From assembly GCA_028707005.1 (NCBI GenBank), contig JAQTVB010000001.1, forward strand, positions 755-64,754: DNA of 64,000 nucleotides. Reading direction: 5' to 3'. The DNA comes from Patescibacteria group bacterium. Its GTDB lineage: Bacteria; Patescibacteriota; Patescibacteriia; Patescibacteriales; GWC2-42-12. The position numbers and the translations under genes are program-made. The notes below the pieces were generated by a model. That model saw only the letters and a list, made by a program, of their open reading frames with translations. It did no database searches and had not been told where the DNA came from. Within the stretch, counting starts at the first letter, position 1, and the number at the start of each line of letters is the position of its first letter. Shown here in pieces: positions 1,423-47,442 of this stretch.

Positions 1423-1509
1423 AGTTTTATTCAATCTGCAATTACGAATTATCAATTAACAATTTCATGATTTTAATTCGTAATTCGTAATTTTTCATTG
1501 ATCATTGAT

Positions 1510-1920
1510 TTAATATATTTCGCAAATCACTTCTCCGCCGATGCCTTGCTTTTTGGCCTCTTTGTTGGTCATTAAGCCGCGCGGAGTGGAAATAATCGCG
1601 ATGCCCAAATTATTCAACACTTTAGGCAGCTCTGTTTTACCCGCGTAGACCCTTCTACCCGGCGTGCTTACTTTCTTTAAGCAAGAAATCATCGGCTGGC
1701 CGTTCTTATATTTTAATTCAATCTTTATTTCATTAAAGGCGGAACTTGAATTCTTTTTGGCCGCGACTTTAATTATCTCCACTTTCTCAATCCAGCCGCC
1801 CTGCTCTAAAATTTTCGCAATATTATATTTCATTCTGCTCATAGGCAAAACAACCGTTTTTTTATTTACGGCTTGTGCATTCCTGATTCTTGTTAGCATG
1901 TCTGCGATTGGATCGGTCAT
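1510..1920 (-). CDS. rpsH: 30S ribosomal protein S8
   Basis: MTDPIADMLTRIRNA signature N-terminus of S8; 136 aa. Confidence 0.95.
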   Translation of the reverse strand: MTDPIADMLTRIRNAQAVNKKTVVLPMSRMKYNIAKILEQGGWIEKVEIIKVAAKKNSSSAFNEIKIELKYKNGQPMISCLKKVSTPGRRVYAGKTELPKVLNNLGIAIISTPRGLMTNKEAKKQGIGGEVICEIY

Positions 1921-4565: not shown

Positions 4566-5255
4566 TTACTTCTTTTCTCCGACAATTTCTCCTTTGGCAG
4601 TCTCGCTTTCTTTCTTAAACACATCTCCCTTATATATCCATAACTTTATTCCAATGGTTCCATAGGTGGTTTTGGCCGTGGCTTTGGCGAAATCAATATC
4701 GGCTCTTAAGGTGTGCAACGGAACTTTGCCCGAGGTAAGCATTTCCGTCCTGGCGATTTCCGCGCCATTTAACCGGCCGCTGATAATTACTTTTACTCCT
4801 AAAGCGCCCGCTCTTTCTATCCGGCTAATCGCCTGCTTCATTACTCTTCTGAAAGGCATTCTTTTTTCAATGTCAATCGCCATCAAACCGGCGATAATCG
4901 CGCTCGATAAATTCGGCCTGTCAAATTCCGTGATATTCAAATTTATATCGCCCAACTTGAAATTCTTTAAAAATTTATCATGCAATTTCTTTTTTAAATC
5001 ACCCGCGCCGCTACCGCCGCGGCCGATTATAATCCCCGGCTTAGCCGTAAAAATACCGATTACAACCTTATGCCCGCTTCTTTCTATCTCCACCCGATCC
5101 ACGCCGGCTTCCCTAAACTCGGTGAATAAATATTTTCTTAAATTAACATCCTGCTCTAAATTTTTAATTAAAATCTTTCCAGTAGCAAACCATCGGGACG
5201 GCCAAGTCCTGGTAATATTCAACCTAAATACTTTTGGATTTACTTTATGTCCCAT
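4566..5255 (-). CDS. rpsC: 30S ribosomal protein S3
   Basis: MGHKVNPKVFRLNITRTWPSRWFA and KH-domain GRGGSG; 229 aa. Confidence 0.95.
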   Translation of the reverse strand: MGHKVNPKVFRLNITRTWPSRWFATGKILIKNLEQDVNLRKYLFTEFREAGVDRVEIERSGHKVVIGIFTAKPGIIIGRGGSGAGDLKKKLHDKFLKNFKLGDINLNITEFDRPNLSSAIIAGLMAIDIEKRMPFRRVMKQAISRIERAGALGVKVIISGRLNGAEIARTEMLTSGKVPLHTLRADIDFAKATAKTTYGTIGIKLWIYKGDVFKKESETAKGEIVGEKK

Positions 5256-8612: not shown

Positions 8613-8624
8613 ATTTCATTATTA

Positions 8625-8738
8625 TTGTCATTGCGGGCTTGACCCGCAATCCAGGAGAGTGTGGCACGAACACATTATTTTACCATTCGCGTTCTTGCTA
8701 CATACTCCTGGATGGCGGCTCGGAGGCCGCCATGACAA
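8625..8738. mobile_element. MITE-like palindromic element of the TTGTCATTSCGGG family (TIR ttgtcattgcgggc ... gccgccatgacaa; internal ccaggag/ctcctgg palindrome)
   Basis: Terminal inverted repeats and sequence similarity to copies at 12311, 12581, 47406 and 59975. Confidence 0.55.
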
Positions 8739-8817
8739 AAATTATTCAAATCACTAATCTGTAAAATTGGGGGGAGTTTGCTTCCTCCGCCCCATGAGGA
8801 CTGGCCTCTCTAGACCT

Positions 8818-10186: not shown

Positions 10187-10341
10187 ACTAAAATATGCTT
10201 TTGCTTCTTTAAGTTATAAACTAAAACTAAATACAGGATATAATCCTAATACTACAAATGTTACACGAATACTACAAATATAATAATTTTGTAGTATTTG
10301 CATACTATTCGTAGTATTCGCATTTTAATATTCGTAGATAT

Positions 10342-10367
10342 AAAAAACTGGTCTTCAACAAAACCAG
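10342..10367 (-). terminator. Stem-loop (ctggtcttcaacaaaaccag) followed by T-run on minus strand inside the 384-bp rpsJ-rplC spacer; intrinsic terminator or attenuator
   Basis: Hairpin plus A6 on plus strand (T6 on minus). Confidence 0.5.
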
Positions 10368-10570
10368 CTTAAGCCGCCCATGGCGGTTCAATTCTCTAGA
10401 CTTAATGGAATTTTAGCTGTTTTATTGGATTTACCTCGTTTTTATATCAACCATTATTCAAGCACTTTCCCGCAGGAGTTGCTTAAACAATCGTTAATAT
10501 TATCTAAAAAACATTCTAACTGATAATTAAATCTGTGTCAATCTGTCCAATCTATGTTCAATTTGTGCCC

Positions 10571-12278: not shown

Positions 12279-12310
12279 ATTATATTGTCTTAACGGCCCC
12301 CAACATCACC

Positions 12311-12339
12311 TTGTCATTCCCGCGAAAGCGGGAATCCAG
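12311..12339. repeat. Partial copy of the MITE-like repeat (ttgtcattcccgcgaaagcgggaatccag)
   Basis: Identical 29-mer to the left end of element 12581-12700. Confidence 0.6.
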
Positions 12340-12420
12340 AAATTTTGGGGTTATCGCCCGATAATTTAAAAGGTGGGCGTCCAACCGTCTATAATTAATT
12401 TTATTATGAATTTTATTAAG

Positions 12421-12449
12421 GACACGATACGACAAGCTTGCATCGTGTT
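12421..12449 (-). terminator. Hairpin (cacgatgcaagcttgtcgtatcgtg) plus AT-rich tail immediately 3' of the tRNA-like element
   Basis: Inverted repeat read directly. Confidence 0.4.
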
Positions 12450-12527
12450 TGGAGCCCCCGATTGGAATCGAACCAATTACCTCGACCTCTTGCGAGGCCG
12501 CAGTCTAGCCATGTGACTTACGGGGGC
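12450..12527 (-). ncRNA. 78-nt tRNA-like element. It has a 7-bp acceptor stem, U8, D-arm with G18G19, T-arm GGTTCGATTCC, discriminator and encoded CCA. The anticodon arm is replaced by a 6-bp stem capped by a GCAA tetraloop (GGCCTC-GCAA-GAGGTC); no 7-nt anticodon loop can be folded.
   Basis: Manual folding of GCCCCCGTAAGTCACATGGCTAGACTGCGGCCTCGCAAGAGGTCGAGGTAATTGGTTCGATTCCAATCGGGGGCTCCA. Confidence 0.45.
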
Positions 12528-12580
12528 GCCAAAAATTTTAAAAGTACATCTCCTTAACGAAATGCACAATCCTTATTTCT

Positions 12581-12700
12581 TTGTCATTCCCGCGAAAGCG
12601 GGAATCCAGGAGGGAGCGGCAGGAATGCGGCCGTTATGATAACATGTTCATGCCTCGCTCTCCTGGATTCCCGACAGCCTGCGGCTTCGGGAATGACAAC
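12581..12700. mobile_element. Full-length 120-bp MITE-like element: TIR ttgtcattcccg / cgggaatgacaa, internal hairpins (tcccgcgaaagcggga; ccaggagag...ctctcctgg)
   Basis: Perfect 12-bp terminal inverted repeats; member of dispersed family. Confidence 0.6.
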
Positions 12701-12706
12701 ATATAA

Positions 12707-21175: not shown

Positions 21176-21249
21176 TGGTCGGGGTGCGCGGAATCGGACC
21201 GCGGCTACAAGCACCCCATGCTCGCGTACTGCCACTATACGACACCCCG
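21176..21249 (-). tRNA. tRNA-Pro (anticodon GGG), 74 nt with encoded CCA, C1:G72 pair, G37
   Basis: Manual cloverleaf: CGGGGTG acceptor, D stem GTAT/GTAC, anticodon stem CGAGC/GCTTG with loop AUGGGGU, T arm CGCGG-TCCGATT-CCGCG, ACCA. The overlapping ORF 20975..21259 is spurious. Confidence 0.85.
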
Positions 21250-22140: not shown

Positions 22141-22230
22141 TTTTTGTTATTACCGCGAATATTGGCGCTCCAAAAGTTCACCCTCTGAATAGCCAATTGC
22201 GCGATAATAACGAATTTTCAAAGAACATAT

Positions 22231-22270
22231 AAAAACTGGCTCCCCGTTAAGAGAGCCAGTTTTTGTTTTC
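22231..22270. terminator. Bidirectional intrinsic terminator (ctggctccccgttaagagagccag flanked by A5 and TTTTTGTTTT)
   Basis: 8-bp stem and flanking runs. Confidence 0.7.
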
Positions 22271-22620
22271 CCTAGTGAGTTTTAACTTAATCAATTCGTT
22301 AAAACACCACAAAAAACTGCTCTCCCTAGCGAGAACCAATAAAAGTAAAATGAAAAAACAGTTTTTTGTATGGTCTTAAGCATAATTATTAAATTTTTAT
22401 CAACCCGACTTTGGCGCGAGCACCTAAACTCTCATTCGGATGATCGCAATTTGTAGAATGCGAGTCTAATCATACCTGTGGATAATTATAGCAAATTGTA
22501 CATAAAAAGCAAGTTATTCTGTAAATTATATATTCGCATGTGCCCCTATTTGCCTGCCTGCCGGCAGGCGGGTAGTGGGGCTCCGCCGCAGGCGGACAAC
22601 CAAAATATGGCTAATTTTAG

Positions 22621-22657
22621 AAAAAAAGAGGGGTGACCGACATCTGCCGATCACCCC
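22621..22657 (-). terminator. Minus-strand terminator after hypothetical gene 22676-22981 (ggggtga...tcacccc, then T7)
   Basis: Hairpin plus A7 on plus strand. Confidence 0.7.
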
Positions 22658-34028: not shown

Positions 34029-34175
34029 ATGCCGGAGATTTACAACCCTAAAAAAGAAACACAAAAAATCAAACAGGGAATTGAAGTTTCTCCGCAAGGT
34101 TACCACCTCACGGAAAAAGATACGCAGGAAAAGAAAAAAGGAGCAAAGCAGGAAGAATGGAGAGAGCAAAAATAA
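34029..34175 (+). CDS. Possible small hydrophilic protein (48 aa) with its own terminator
   Basis: Manual ORF MPEIYNPKKETQKIKQGIEVSPQGYHLTEKDTQEKKKGAKQEEWREQK; hairpin terminator 34186-34217. Confidence 0.3.
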   Translation: MPEIYNPKKETQKIKQGIEVSPQGYHLTEKDTQEKKKGAKQEEWREQK

Positions 34176-34258: not shown

Positions 34259-35521
34259 TTATCTAGCCTCTTCCAGTTTAACTTTAATGGTTTTTTCCTT
34301 GGCTTGGTGAAGAACTTTTAAAGTAATCTCCTGGCCCGGCTTAAATTTGGCGATTTCCGCGGCCAGCAAATTTTCTTCGGTGATTTTCTCGCCGTTAATT
34401 TCCAAAATAATATCATTTTCCGTGAGTCCCGCCTTGTCCGCCGGACTGCCGGGGATAACCGCCAAATCGGTCGGCTTCTGGCCGCGGACGATAATCGCGC
34501 CGTAATCCACCGATAATTTATTGTCCTGGGCAATGGACTGATTGATAATTAAATATCTCACGCCAAGCCAGGGCCGGACAATGCGGCCGTTGGTTTTAAC
34601 ATTATTAATAATGCTTTTAACCGCGTCAATCGGTATGGCGAAACCGATGTTCTGCGCCCCTTGCGCCATAGCCGTGTTAATGCCGATCACCTGGCCGGCA
34701 ATATTGAGGAGCGGACCGCCGGAATTGCCCTGATTAATGGAAGCGTCTGTCTGGATGACATTTTCCAATTCTTCCGCTCCGGATAAAGCGCCGCTGGCGG
34801 TAATGGAGCGGGCTAGACCGGAAATCACGCCGGTGGAAACCGTGTTTCTGAATTCGCCCAAAGCGTTGCCGATGGCGATAACGCTCTGCCCCACTTTCAG
34901 ATTGGCGCTGTCGCCCAATTCCACGGTGGGCAGATTTTTAGCGTCAATTTTCAAAATTGCCAAATCAATAGTCTGATCCTGGCCCACGACTTTGGCCGGA
35001 AATTTCTTGCCATCATTCATTAAAACCGTATAATCGGCTTCAGCGTCATCAACCACATGGCGATTGGTGACAATCAAGCCGTCGGCGGTAATGATAAAAC
35101 CGCTGCCGCCGCCGATTTCTTGCTTAACTGTCCCGCTTGAATCCTGGTTGGACTGATTATTATTCTGCGGCTGGCTAGGCAAAGCAAAATCCGGAAAATC
35201 GGAACCGAAGAATTGGCGGAAAAATTCCGAGCCGAAAGGATTGCCGTATTGCTGAATTTTGGGCAAATTTTTGGTGATAATAATACTTACTACGGCCGGC
35301 GAAACCTTGTCTACGGCCGAAATCACGGCAGAATCTTCGCTTACTTTAATGATTTTTTCCCTCTCCGCGGACGGTTTAGAAAAGCCAAACCACTGGCCGA
35401 AATTCAGCTGATTGGAGGCCAGGCTGCCTGCCCAAAACCCGAAACCGGCGCCCACGATTGAGCTTACAATAATAGAAATGACGATAACCGCAATAAACGC
35501 TTTTTTAAAATTATTGTCCAT
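34259..35521 (-). CDS. htrA: HtrA/DegP-family serine protease (trypsin-like domain plus PDZ) with N-terminal TM
   Basis: TNRHVV (His), D, GNSGGPLLN (Ser) catalytic triad context; C-terminal PDZ. Confidence 0.9.
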   Translation of the reverse strand: MDNNFKKAFIAVIVISIIVSSIVGAGFGFWAGSLASNQLNFGQWFGFSKPSAEREKIIKVSEDSAVISAVDKVSPAVVSIIITKNLPKIQQYGNPFGSEFFRQFFGSDFPDFALPSQPQNNNQSNQDSSGTVKQEIGGGSGFIITADGLIVTNRHVVDDAEADYTVLMNDGKKFPAKVVGQDQTIDLAILKIDAKNLPTVELGDSANLKVGQSVIAIGNALGEFRNTVSTGVISGLARSITASGALSGAEELENVIQTDASINQGNSGGPLLNIAGQVIGINTAMAQGAQNIGFAIPIDAVKSIINNVKTNGRIVRPWLGVRYLIINQSIAQDNKLSVDYGAIIVRGQKPTDLAVIPGSPADKAGLTENDIILEINGEKITEENLLAAEIAKFKPGQEITLKVLHQAKEKTIKVKLEEAR

Positions 35522-35699
35522 AGATTTTATTGAGAAAAGTGAATCAACGAGATTATGACCTATATATTTATACGCTGACCAGGACAGTTTTGTTGCAGAT
35601 TATATAATATTATAGTATTGCCATAAAAAATTTTCAAATCGAACATACTTGATTTTTTTGTTATTATTTGGTTTCATTAAGAGAGGTTGAAAAAAACAA

Positions 35700-35990
35700 T
35701 AGGCGGAGCGGCTTACAGGCAAAAAACTGCCGGCTTAGCCGCTATGCTGACATTAGAGCCAAAAAACACCACGGCTCTGTCTGGCGAACACTTCGCCATT
35801 ATTATTTCGCGATCAACGCGCGCCCCCCAGCGCGTTCAACACCATAGACCACGGTAAGACGACAATAGCGACCACGCCGGCCCACCAGCGAAGTCGAATT
35901 CTCCTCACGCCATACTATGGCCCTGGCTTTCGCGAAATCAGCCTTGGGGAGGGCGAGCTGTTCAGCCGCTCTCCCCCTCTTTTTTTAAAT
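35700..35990 (+). ncRNA. Candidate structured ncRNA (~290 nt, GC-rich, multiple hairpins) ending at a strong intrinsic terminator; antisense to flanking genes; class unknown
   Basis: No ORF; GC island in AT-rich intergenic DNA; plus-strand terminator at 35946-35987 not attributable to any plus-strand CDS. Confidence 0.4.
35946..35987 (+). terminator. Intrinsic terminator ggggagggcgagc-tgttca-gccgctctcccc + CTCTTTTTTT
   Basis: 12-bp GC-rich stem plus T7. Confidence 0.8.
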
Positions 35991-36085
35991 CAACTTCAAC
36001 ATAAAAAAACCGCGCGACACCAACGGCTCGCGCTGAAAAAATTTGCCTCGCACCAAATATATTGCCTTAGATTCTGGAATCAAAC

Positions 36086-36418
36086 TTATTTGAACCTAAA
36101 TATTTTTTCTTCAAACTCTTCTATCCTGCCTTTAACCACTTCAACGCCTTCCAATTCCAGCAGTTCATTTTTCTTTTTCGCTCCCCGCGCGTACCCGCCC
36201 AAGCCGCCATCGCTTTTAACCACGCGGTGGCAAGGCGCTTGCGGCGCTTGCGGATTTTTATTCAAAGCATTGCCCACGGCGCGCGCAGCCTTGGGCCTGC
36301 CCAGATGCTTGGCCAGCTCTTGATAAGTCGTAACCCGGCCACGCGGAATTTTTTTCAGCGCTTGCCAGACTTTTTGATTGAATCCGGCTGATTTTATGTT
36401 CTTACATAATGTTGACAT
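36086..36418 (-). CDS. ogt: Methylated-DNA-[protein]-cysteine S-methyltransferase family (DNA-binding / active-site domain only, 110 aa)
   Basis: PCHRVV active-site motif and surrounding HTH. Confidence 0.8.
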   Translation of the reverse strand: MSTLCKNIKSAGFNQKVWQALKKIPRGRVTTYQELAKHLGRPKAARAVGNALNKNPQAPQAPCHRVVKSDGGLGGYARGAKKKNELLELEGVEVVKGRIEEFEEKIFRFK

Positions 36419-36466: not shown

Positions 36467-36700
36467 ATGAGAGAAAACAAAATGAACTTTGCAACTTTTA
36501 TTCCTAAACTCGTGGCCAACCTTACCCAGGTCTCAACGCAACGGGTCGGCGAGCAGACGGTTATCCCCCCGGCAATACAGGAGGAAGTAATCAGCAACAT
36601 CGCCGCTGCTATTGAAACACAGTTGTTGACCTACAGAGCCAACAGCCTCAGAGTCGGAGAACTTGTGGCGGCGGTCAGAAACGTAACCGGAGGTTGCTGA
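36467..36700 (+). CDS. Hypothetical small protein (77 aa) followed by terminator
   Basis: ORF plus dedicated terminator. Confidence 0.4.
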   Translation: MRENKMNFATFIPKLVANLTQVSTQRVGEQTVIPPAIQEEVISNIAAAIETQLLTYRANSLRVGELVAAVRNVTGGC

Positions 36701-36717
36701 TCTGATCATCTCTCCCC

Positions 36718-36753
36718 GCTCGCCCGGTGTCTTAGCGCCGGGCGAGTTTTTTT
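36718..36753 (+). terminator. Intrinsic terminator gctcgcccgg-tgtcttag-cgccgggcgag + T9
   Basis: 10-bp stem plus T-run. Confidence 0.85.
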
Positions 36754-41387: not shown

Positions 41388-41406
41388 ACACAAATTAAAT
41401 TTGTGT
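41388..41406. promoter_or_regulatory. NrdR-box-like palindrome acacaaattaaatttgtgt upstream of nrdR (second half-site taatttgtgtt at 41417-41428)
   Basis: Matches NrdR box consensus acaCwAtATaTwGtgt; positioned in promoter region of nrdR-nrdD-nrdG. Confidence 0.6.
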
Positions 41407-41724
41407 TCATTCGTCCATAATTTGTGTTAATCTGCGTCTACCCCAAATAAAAAAGCACCTATGCTGCCAAAAAATCATAAAAAGTGCTTTATCGGGCGGG
41501 AGGGAAATTAACCATATCTTGTGATTGCTAATTTAATTATACCACTAGGGATAGTATGGTCAAGTTCAAGCCCTTTGGCTAATTTTAGTTTAGTTTTTCA
41601 AAAATATTTCACAATGTTTCGTTTTGATTTCCCACTGCTCGATTCGAGGCTGTGGATATGTGGATATGTCGGCACCGACCAGGCGAATTCGGCCGCGATT
41701 GGCGCCGGCTGACCTGAAAAAAAA

Positions 41725-47228: not shown

Positions 47229-47442
47229 GCGAATTATGAATCTCTAATTTTCTCACCCCATGATTCATTATTCCTGTTTATATCTTAACCTATACTTAAA
47301 AATATAGCAAGTGGTTTGATTCTACCGACTTTTCCACAGGGTGTATAAATCTTTTATACACCTGGCTTTTGCCCCCTTGATAAAGGGGGTTAGGGGGATT
47401 TTATTTTGTCATTTCCGCGCAGGCGGGAATCCAAAATTTATT

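Follow-up and report, generated by a model that had tools for sequence, protein, structure and literature searches.

A candidate plus-strand small-RNA gene in an accessory hot spot between ogt and htrA of a Patescibacteria bacterium

The window analysed here is a 64-kb stretch of DNA from an uncultured Patescibacteria group bacterium, and nearly all of its genes lie on the minus strand. Between two of these genes, ogt and htrA, a GC-rich segment rich in hairpins ends in an intrinsic terminator of the opposite polarity. What does this segment specify, and do the relatives of the organism carry it at the same place?

A structured, GC-rich segment in the htrA-ogt gap

The gene at 34259-35521 (minus strand) encodes an HtrA protease with trypsin-like and PDZ domains, and the gene at 36086-36418 (minus strand) the DNA-binding/methyltransferase domain of Ogt. 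The closest HtrA proteins come from Patescibacteria MAGs (Parcubacteria/Moranbacteria-like). The gene order around the element is nrdR, nrdD, a radical-SAM activase, a 113-aa protein (p113), p77 on the plus strand, ogt, the element and htrA, followed past htrA by a peptide release factor, a 220-aa protein, a second radical-SAM protein and comEC. At 564 bp, the htrA-ogt gap is the largest non-coding gap of the window, and it has the highest GC peak of all of these gaps (0.63 over 100 nt). The window has an overall GC content of 45.6%, and its intergenic DNA is typically 20–35% GC. The 100-nt windows from 35700 to 35999 reach 0.53–0.59, while the flanks fall to 0.20–0.32 (35450-35699) and 0.34–0.41 (36000-36149).

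The element is bounded on both sides by signals that belong to its neighbours. On the right lies the minus-strand terminator of ogt itself (36003-36033), with its hairpin at 36012-36033 and a U7 tract at 36003-36009, which converges with the terminator of the element at a distance of ~20 nt. The left boundary is the minus-strand htrA promoter, TTGAAA-17-TATAAT (35609-35637; 11 of 12 consensus positions), which lies outside the element. In the related locus L002 the complete TTGAAA-17-TATAAT is readable as well, and in the related locus L003 its -35 hexamer. The original prediction described the segment as antisense to its neighbours. The opposite orientation holds, but the element overlaps neither neighbouring coding sequence, so that "antisense" applies to orientation only.

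The gap on the other side of htrA, 414 bp towards the release-factor gene, contains a plus-strand ORF for a 48-aa Lys/Glu-rich peptide (34029-34175). This ORF scores as coding-like by codon usage (+0.28 for the ORF, +0.21 in a second scoring) and a gene is called there on the public contig; the ORF has no family match in Pfam, PHROG or PADLOC.

From GC content, folding energy and codon usage, we delimit a candidate non-coding RNA body of ~297 nt on the plus strand (35690-35986), consisting of a GC-rich structured core and the terminator; the 5′ end is an estimate. The 301-nt segment 35690-35990 has a minimum free energy (MFE) of -111.8 kcal/mol on the plus strand, corresponding to z = -5.8 against 100 dinucleotide shuffles. 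The MFE and centroid structures consist of five separate hairpins or domains, one of which is branched. Each of the five modules is significant alone against its own shuffles (z -3.1 to -4.5), and helix probabilities are 0.73–1.0, except for the A7:U7 closing helix (0.47). The ~290-bp GC-rich, hairpin-dense plus-strand segment that had been predicted between htrA and ogt is thus borne out by its GC content of 0.53–0.59, its z of -5.8 and its five modules.

The first module, hairpin H1 (35702-35748), has an 11-bp outer stem that pairs 35702-35713 with 35737-35748, a 4-bp inner stem and the A-rich loop CAAAAAAC; its ΔG is -23.5, its z -3.1 and its pair probability 0.90–0.97. Hairpin H2 follows directly (35749-35781; z -3.9) and carries a 12-nt A-rich loop, AAAAAACACCAC. 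The 5′ half of H2 repeats a portion of H1 in direct orientation (TTACAGGCAAAAAAC / TTAGAGCCAAAAAAC; repeat D2). Hairpin H3 (35782-35808; z -3.2) is formed by 7 bp around a 3-nt loop (35782-35798) and continues into UUAUUAUUU. Together with UUAUUAUUU it is the sole terminator-like site that a simple terminator scan flagged in the element; as a weak internal site of this kind, it could give rise to a short isoform of ~100–120 nt. The fourth module, H4, is a branched domain of 135 nt (35804-35938; ΔG -43.0, z -4.5) that is closed by a 9-bp stem (AUUUCGCGA / UCGCGAAAU) and has helix probabilities of 0.73–1.0. It contains H4a, a hairpin with a C-rich loop (35815-35836), and H4b, a long and irregular hairpin (35842-35920). 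The terminator forms the fifth module. The stems of the element are mostly perfect and 7–13 bp long.

The minus strand of the 301-nt segment folds almost as well (z = -5.7). The two strands have 72 of the 92 predicted pairs in common, and most stems are Watson-Crick symmetric, so the fold alone neither fixes the strand nor proves a function at the RNA level; only the polarity of the U-tract separates the strands. Against the background of this DNA, 5 of 107 windows of 300 nt reach z <= -5.6, mostly where they straddle intergenic gaps or gene ends. In a matched run with 15 shuffles the element scores z -7.8, and none of the 107 background windows goes lower than -6.8. The background z has a mean of -1.0, and the hairpin density of the element is well above that of coding sequence here. 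When MFE is regressed on GC over 637 windows, the plus strand ranks 35th (top 5.5%) and the minus strand 2nd. No tandem repeats were found. A 23-nt self-match at 4673-4695 sits inside a coding sequence and is a chance match, and the window holds no longer one.

Other gaps of the window are structured as well. The strongest GC-corrected fold signal belongs to the gap at 12279-12706 (minus strand), in which ARAGORN reports, at 12450-12527, a "tRNA-???" whose anticodon would have four bases (gcaa); the Rfam tRNA model has no match to this interval at E <= 0.1. On either side of it lies a perfect 27-nt copy of GGATTCCCGCTTTCGCGGGAATGACAA (12311-12337 and 12581-12607); a third copy, at 47406-47432, has 3 mismatches. 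At 22230-22620 (minus strand) a second ORF-less unit lies between the minus-strand terminators 22621-22657 and 22231-22259. By eye it has a TTGCTT-17-TATAAT promoter-like site near 22512-22480, its fold reaches z -6.0, and it gave no Rfam match and no coding-like small ORF; it is a candidate for another small RNA. The gaps 8613-8817, 10187-10570 and 41394-41724 also lack a coding-like small ORF. The first two may be regulatory leaders, given their strong fold signal and their setting among apparent ribosomal-protein genes.

Terminator, promoter candidates and coding potential

The element ends in an intrinsic terminator on the plus strand (35946-35986). It consists of a 13-bp GC-rich stem with one bulge (35946-35976), the trinucleotide CUC and a U7 tract (35980-35986). 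The hairpin has a ΔG of about -24 kcal/mol (-24.3, or -23.5 with T7 in the window scan) and a z of -3.6. The simple terminator scan missed this site because of the bulge and the 3-nt spacer. A custom scan of both strands of the 64 kb identified it as one of the five strongest sites of the window, those that combine ΔG <= -20 kcal/mol with a T7 run, in agreement with the textbook terminator (35946-35987) without a plus-strand coding sequence that had been described at this place. Each of the other four lies just downstream of a gene on its own strand, p77 among them. The terminator of the element serves no plus-strand coding sequence, its polarity is opposite to that of htrA and ogt, and the U-tract is absent on the opposite strand. 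Since the other four sites all end same-strand genes, this orphan terminator implies a plus-strand transcription unit.

Promoter-like sites can be read upstream of the element. The AT-rich upstream part of the insert (35638-35689, plus strand) is unstructured (z +1.4) and contains weak promoter-like hexamers. By eye, TTGATT (35649-35654) is followed after a 17-nt spacer by TG-n-TTTCAT (35669-35677), or TATTAT (35662-35667) can be read instead; a promoter scan of 35638-35689 gave nothing above threshold. The best plus-strand sigma70-like site in the promoter scan, AGGACA-16-TATAAT (10/12), is located at 35581-35608, 80 nt upstream of the element, and its palindromic -10 is common to it and the divergent htrA promoter. 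By eye, its -35-like hexamer has no counterpart in L002 or L003. A start from this site would yield a transcript of ~370 nt.

The segment is non-coding. According to the original prediction no ORF exceeds about 38 codons; this has to be corrected, because TTG starts give ORFs of 59 and 56 codons, the longest in the element (37 codons with ATG). With 60 genes of the window as the training set, the codon-usage log-odds of the six frames all fall between -0.23 and -0.41, compared with +0.335 ± 0.11 for real genes of the window (5th percentile +0.156). A joined six-frame query against 5.8 billion proteins found no match at E <= 1. An exhaustive phmmer search with the longest stop-free frame returned a single match, a 12-copy tandem-repeat sequence, which we rejected as a repeat artefact with a score summed from weak repeated matches. 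The small ORFs of the element matched nothing in Pfam, PHROGs or PADLOC, and no gene is called at the element on the public contig. A degraded protein-coding fragment, which had been named as the finding that would overturn an RNA, was found neither by tblastx over related loci nor by the six-frame and phmmer searches or codon usage.

The same gap in related genomes

The comparison covers 140 related loci (750 kb), which were retrieved with HtrA as query from collections of genomes and metagenomes or by exact-protein look-ups. Relatives with 70–77% identical HtrA keep the same gene order. Where they carry no cargo, ogt and htrA are 60–250 bp apart and separated by an AT-rich spacer (125–180 bp in L002, L003 and L057-L060). 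The gap sequences of L002 and L003, when read, contain only the ogt terminator and the htrA promoter in AT-rich DNA.

In other relatives the gap is occupied. Five loci (L004 and L063-L066) hold ~1.8 kb between ogt and htrA; in L004 (1195-2910), Pfam identifies an MNT (NTP_transf_2)-HepT toxin-antitoxin pair and a NUDIX hydrolase, next to a 182-aa ORF of unknown function. The closest relative (77% identity in HtrA) has a 153-aa orphan ORF in the gap. A further locus with a 75% identical HtrA (L139; GCA_964560005.1, CAZLKB010000003.1, 1-3000) carries a complete diversity-generating retroelement (DGR) directly upstream of htrA. It comprises a target gene with a variable repeat (850-978), a template repeat (1324-1455; 82.6% identical over 132 nt), bAvd (1472-1795, minus strand) and a reverse transcriptase (1942-2859). 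The template RNA of this retroelement occupies the same slot upstream of htrA, and the plus strand of our element is likewise A-rich and non-coding. In contrast to L139, the genes around our element include neither a reverse transcriptase nor Avd, the window contains no second copy that could be a variable repeat, and the element is not similar to the template or variable repeat of L139; we rejected a DGR template repeat as an identity for it.

Among the loci compared, a long GC-rich non-coding ogt-htrA gap occurs in the window only. The inserted block spans ~35648-36003, about 356 bp, and is bracketed by an imperfect 14-nt direct repeat, D3 (TCAAATCGAACATA at 35634-35647 and TCAACTTCAACATA at 35990-36003; 79%, 11/14). 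This repeat is a possible insertion scar at about chance level, as a rough estimate gives ~0.6 such pairs in flanks this AT-rich. Searches of the 140 related loci with the element by blastn, nhmmer and tblastx retrieved only an identical (100%) Logan contig, and exact-protein look-ups with HtrA, Ogt and p77 all return the same single contig. A single-sequence covariance model of a 138-nt domain found only itself over 610 kb. Neither blastn against phages and plasmids nor exact-pattern scans of viral contigs found a match. By this comparison, the element is an insertion specific to its lineage, at a site that is a hot spot for accessory genes.

A second insertion lies on the other side of ogt. 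The orphan gene p77 encodes 77 aa on the plus strand (36467-36753), with coding-like codon usage (+0.20) and a strong terminator of its own (36719-36753). It has no match in Pfam, PHROG or PADLOC and is absent from relatives that keep p113 and ogt adjacent; like the element, it is specific to this lineage.

Interpretation of the element

Known RNA families offer no identity for the element. A permissive Rfam scan (E <= 10) over 35500-36100 returned sub-threshold noise only: a snoRNA and a miRNA match, a match to STnc410 on the AT-rich flank, and a 13-bit ylbH-leader match on the opposite strand. A run over the whole window at gathering thresholds gave 0 matches and is untrustworthy, as it missed a tRNA-Pro at 21179-21249 (48.1 bits against a gathering score of 29) that was found in E-value mode; the negative result for the element comes from the permissive scan and not from this run. 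ARAGORN detected no tRNA or tmRNA in the element. The statement that it is not RNase P RNA, tmRNA or SRP RNA, made originally by eye, holds against the family models of the permissive scan and, for tmRNA, against ARAGORN. A full-text search of the literature on structured RNAs and 6S RNA in Patescibacteria (CPR) found nothing relevant.

The suggestion of a 6S-like RNA is not supported. Like 6S RNA (Rfam RF00013 and relatives), the element is non-coding, structured and a few hundred nucleotides long, but it matches no 6S model at E <= 10. 6S RNA forms a rod in which a closing stem and a terminal stem lie on either side of a large central bubble, while the element folds into several hairpins with a branched domain, and it is missing in relatives both at the syntenic site and within about ±3 kb of htrA. 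Since Patescibacteria are divergent and may be poorly covered by Rfam, the models could conceivably have missed a housekeeping RNA of divergent form (6S, RNase P, SRP or tmRNA). With no such family in the permissive Rfam scan, no tmRNA from ARAGORN, a fold that is not the 6S rod and no element at the syntenic site in any relative, this explanation is scarcely credible and largely refuted. The other identity proposed originally, a novel structured RNA, is possible.

The polarity and quality of the terminator, the compact body of near-perfect hairpins, the high GC content amid AT-rich intergenic DNA and the absent coding signal together make a plus-strand, non-coding transcription unit the most likely nature of the element. 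We tentatively favour a stand-alone plus-strand small-RNA gene of ~300 nt that is carried in an accessory hot spot. The ~356-bp insert would lie between the ogt terminator and the htrA promoter, and its AT-rich upstream stretch would hold a weak promoter. Transcription would begin at ~35615 or at ~35675-35685 and produce a GC-rich RNA body of ~250 nt, in which three 5′ hairpins, two of them with A-rich loops of the CAAAAAAC type, precede the branched 135-nt domain. The strong Rho-independent terminator would then halt transcription ~20 nt before the convergent terminator of ogt. The RNA may act in trans, through base-pairing or protein binding. We favour a trans-acting or protein-binding RNA over a leader because no plus-strand gene follows. 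As a speculation, the A-rich loops of H1 and H2, which are also part of a direct repeat, are the most obvious candidate interaction sites.

Several observations speak against a small-RNA gene: no homologue was found in the collections searched and the relatives lack the element at the locus, no convincing promoter lies immediately upstream, ~5% of the windows of this DNA reach a similar z, and the plus-strand MFE comes no higher than the top 5.5% after regression on GC. The element resembles bacterial small-RNA genes in that it is intergenic and non-coding, contains several stem-loops, ends in a GC-rich hairpin with a U-tract, is oriented independently of its neighbours and, like many small RNAs, is restricted to a lineage. 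It differs from them in that no homologue, seed region or target was found for it, and at ~300 nt it is longer than is typical of base-pairing small RNAs. Overall, the element is most like an ordinary stand-alone small-RNA gene and is a member of no described RNA family.

The element may instead be an inert remnant of accessory DNA, which is the main rival reading and only somewhat less likely. It would derive from a former plus-strand cassette, as a 3′ UTR with its terminator or as a decayed orphan gene, and would have no present function, except perhaps to stop stray plus-strand transcription from running antisense into ogt. The relatives, which hold differing cargo at the same spot (none, MNT-HepT with NUDIX, a DGR, a 153-aa ORF), fit this reading, as do the singleton status of the element and the presence of p77 as a second orphan plus-strand insertion beside ogt. 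However, decay in an AT-biased genome should erode both GC content and stems, and the five stems of 7–13 bp are essentially perfect. No frame has a coding signal or protein similarity, and the hairpin density is well above that of coding sequence here, where the background z averages -1.0. The intact stems and the high GC argue against a long decay; a recent insertion would look alike. We infer from the 54% GC and the intact stems, amid intergenic DNA of 20–30% GC, that the element is either recent or maintained by selection.

The element could also be a non-autonomous mobile element of the MITE, Correia or BOX type between ogt and htrA, which we regard as improbable. MITE and Correia elements have a similar size of a few hundred bp, self-complementarity, terminator-like features and presence/absence polymorphism. 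A 23-nt terminal inverted repeat (35691-35713 with 35964-35986) is 74% complementary (17/23), a level reached in 1 of 2000 end-shuffles, and the imperfect 14-nt direct repeat around the 356-bp insert, together with the presence/absence pattern, fits insertion. The inverted repeat, however, consists essentially of A7/T7 and the 8–9 nt GAGCGGCU/AGCCGCUC; without the homopolymers, 300 of 2000 shuffles reach it. The direct repeat is about as good as expected by chance, and there is no clear target-site duplication. Only one copy is present in the 64 kb, with none in the 750 kb of related loci or in the viral, phage and plasmid collections that were searched, and the real repeat family of the window (GGATTCCCGC...GGGAATGACAA) is unrelated to the element.

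Two further alternatives assign the segment a regulatory role. As an orphan riboswitch or attenuator, its body would sense a signal and its terminator would gate read-through antisense across ogt. The arrangement of a structured 5′ domain, a terminator and a convergent ogt just downstream is compatible with this, and GGAGCGGCU, the 5′ strand of H1, has two potential partners, its local one and the 3′ strand of the terminator, AGCCGCUCU; pairing with the latter would be a possible long-range anti-terminator (repeat I1). This competing helix would span 250 nt, though, and H1 forms first during transcription; read-through would be obstructed by the ogt terminator hairpin. The element is not conserved and matches no known aptamer, riboswitch or leader class in Rfam, and with ogt convergent no plus-strand gene follows, all of which makes an attenuator very unlikely. 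A system like a type I toxin-antitoxin, in which an overlapping plus-strand RNA represses a 31-aa hydrophobic peptide encoded at 35813-35908 (minus strand; VRRIRLRWWAGVVAIVVLPWSMVLNALGGAR), has a slighter chance still. The peptide does have a basic N-terminus and one hydrophobic helix-like stretch, and a sister lineage carries a toxin-antitoxin pair in the same hot spot. Against this, the ORF starts with GTG and has no ribosome-binding site at a usable distance, and by eye there is no minus-strand promoter between the ogt terminator and the ORF. At 31 aa a codon score is unreliable, and the 0.18 of this ORF is borderline; GC-rich antisense frames often look hydrophobic, and the peptide has no PADLOC or PHROG match.

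The small-RNA gene is the reading that we retain, and the element, a singleton, is a candidate and not a discovery. There is little likelihood that it represents a new class of ~300-nt structured RNA, a promoter-to-terminator cassette in an accessory hot spot of Patescibacteria. If it did, the cassette would be an accessory module made of RNA alone, with a regulatory, addiction or anti-phage role for instance, and not a housekeeping RNA. The more solid by-product of the analysis is the map that shows the ogt-htrA gap to be a hot spot of insertion in this lineage. Validation of a strain-specific structured RNA at such a site would point to the acquisition of RNA genes as mobile cargo by these small genomes.
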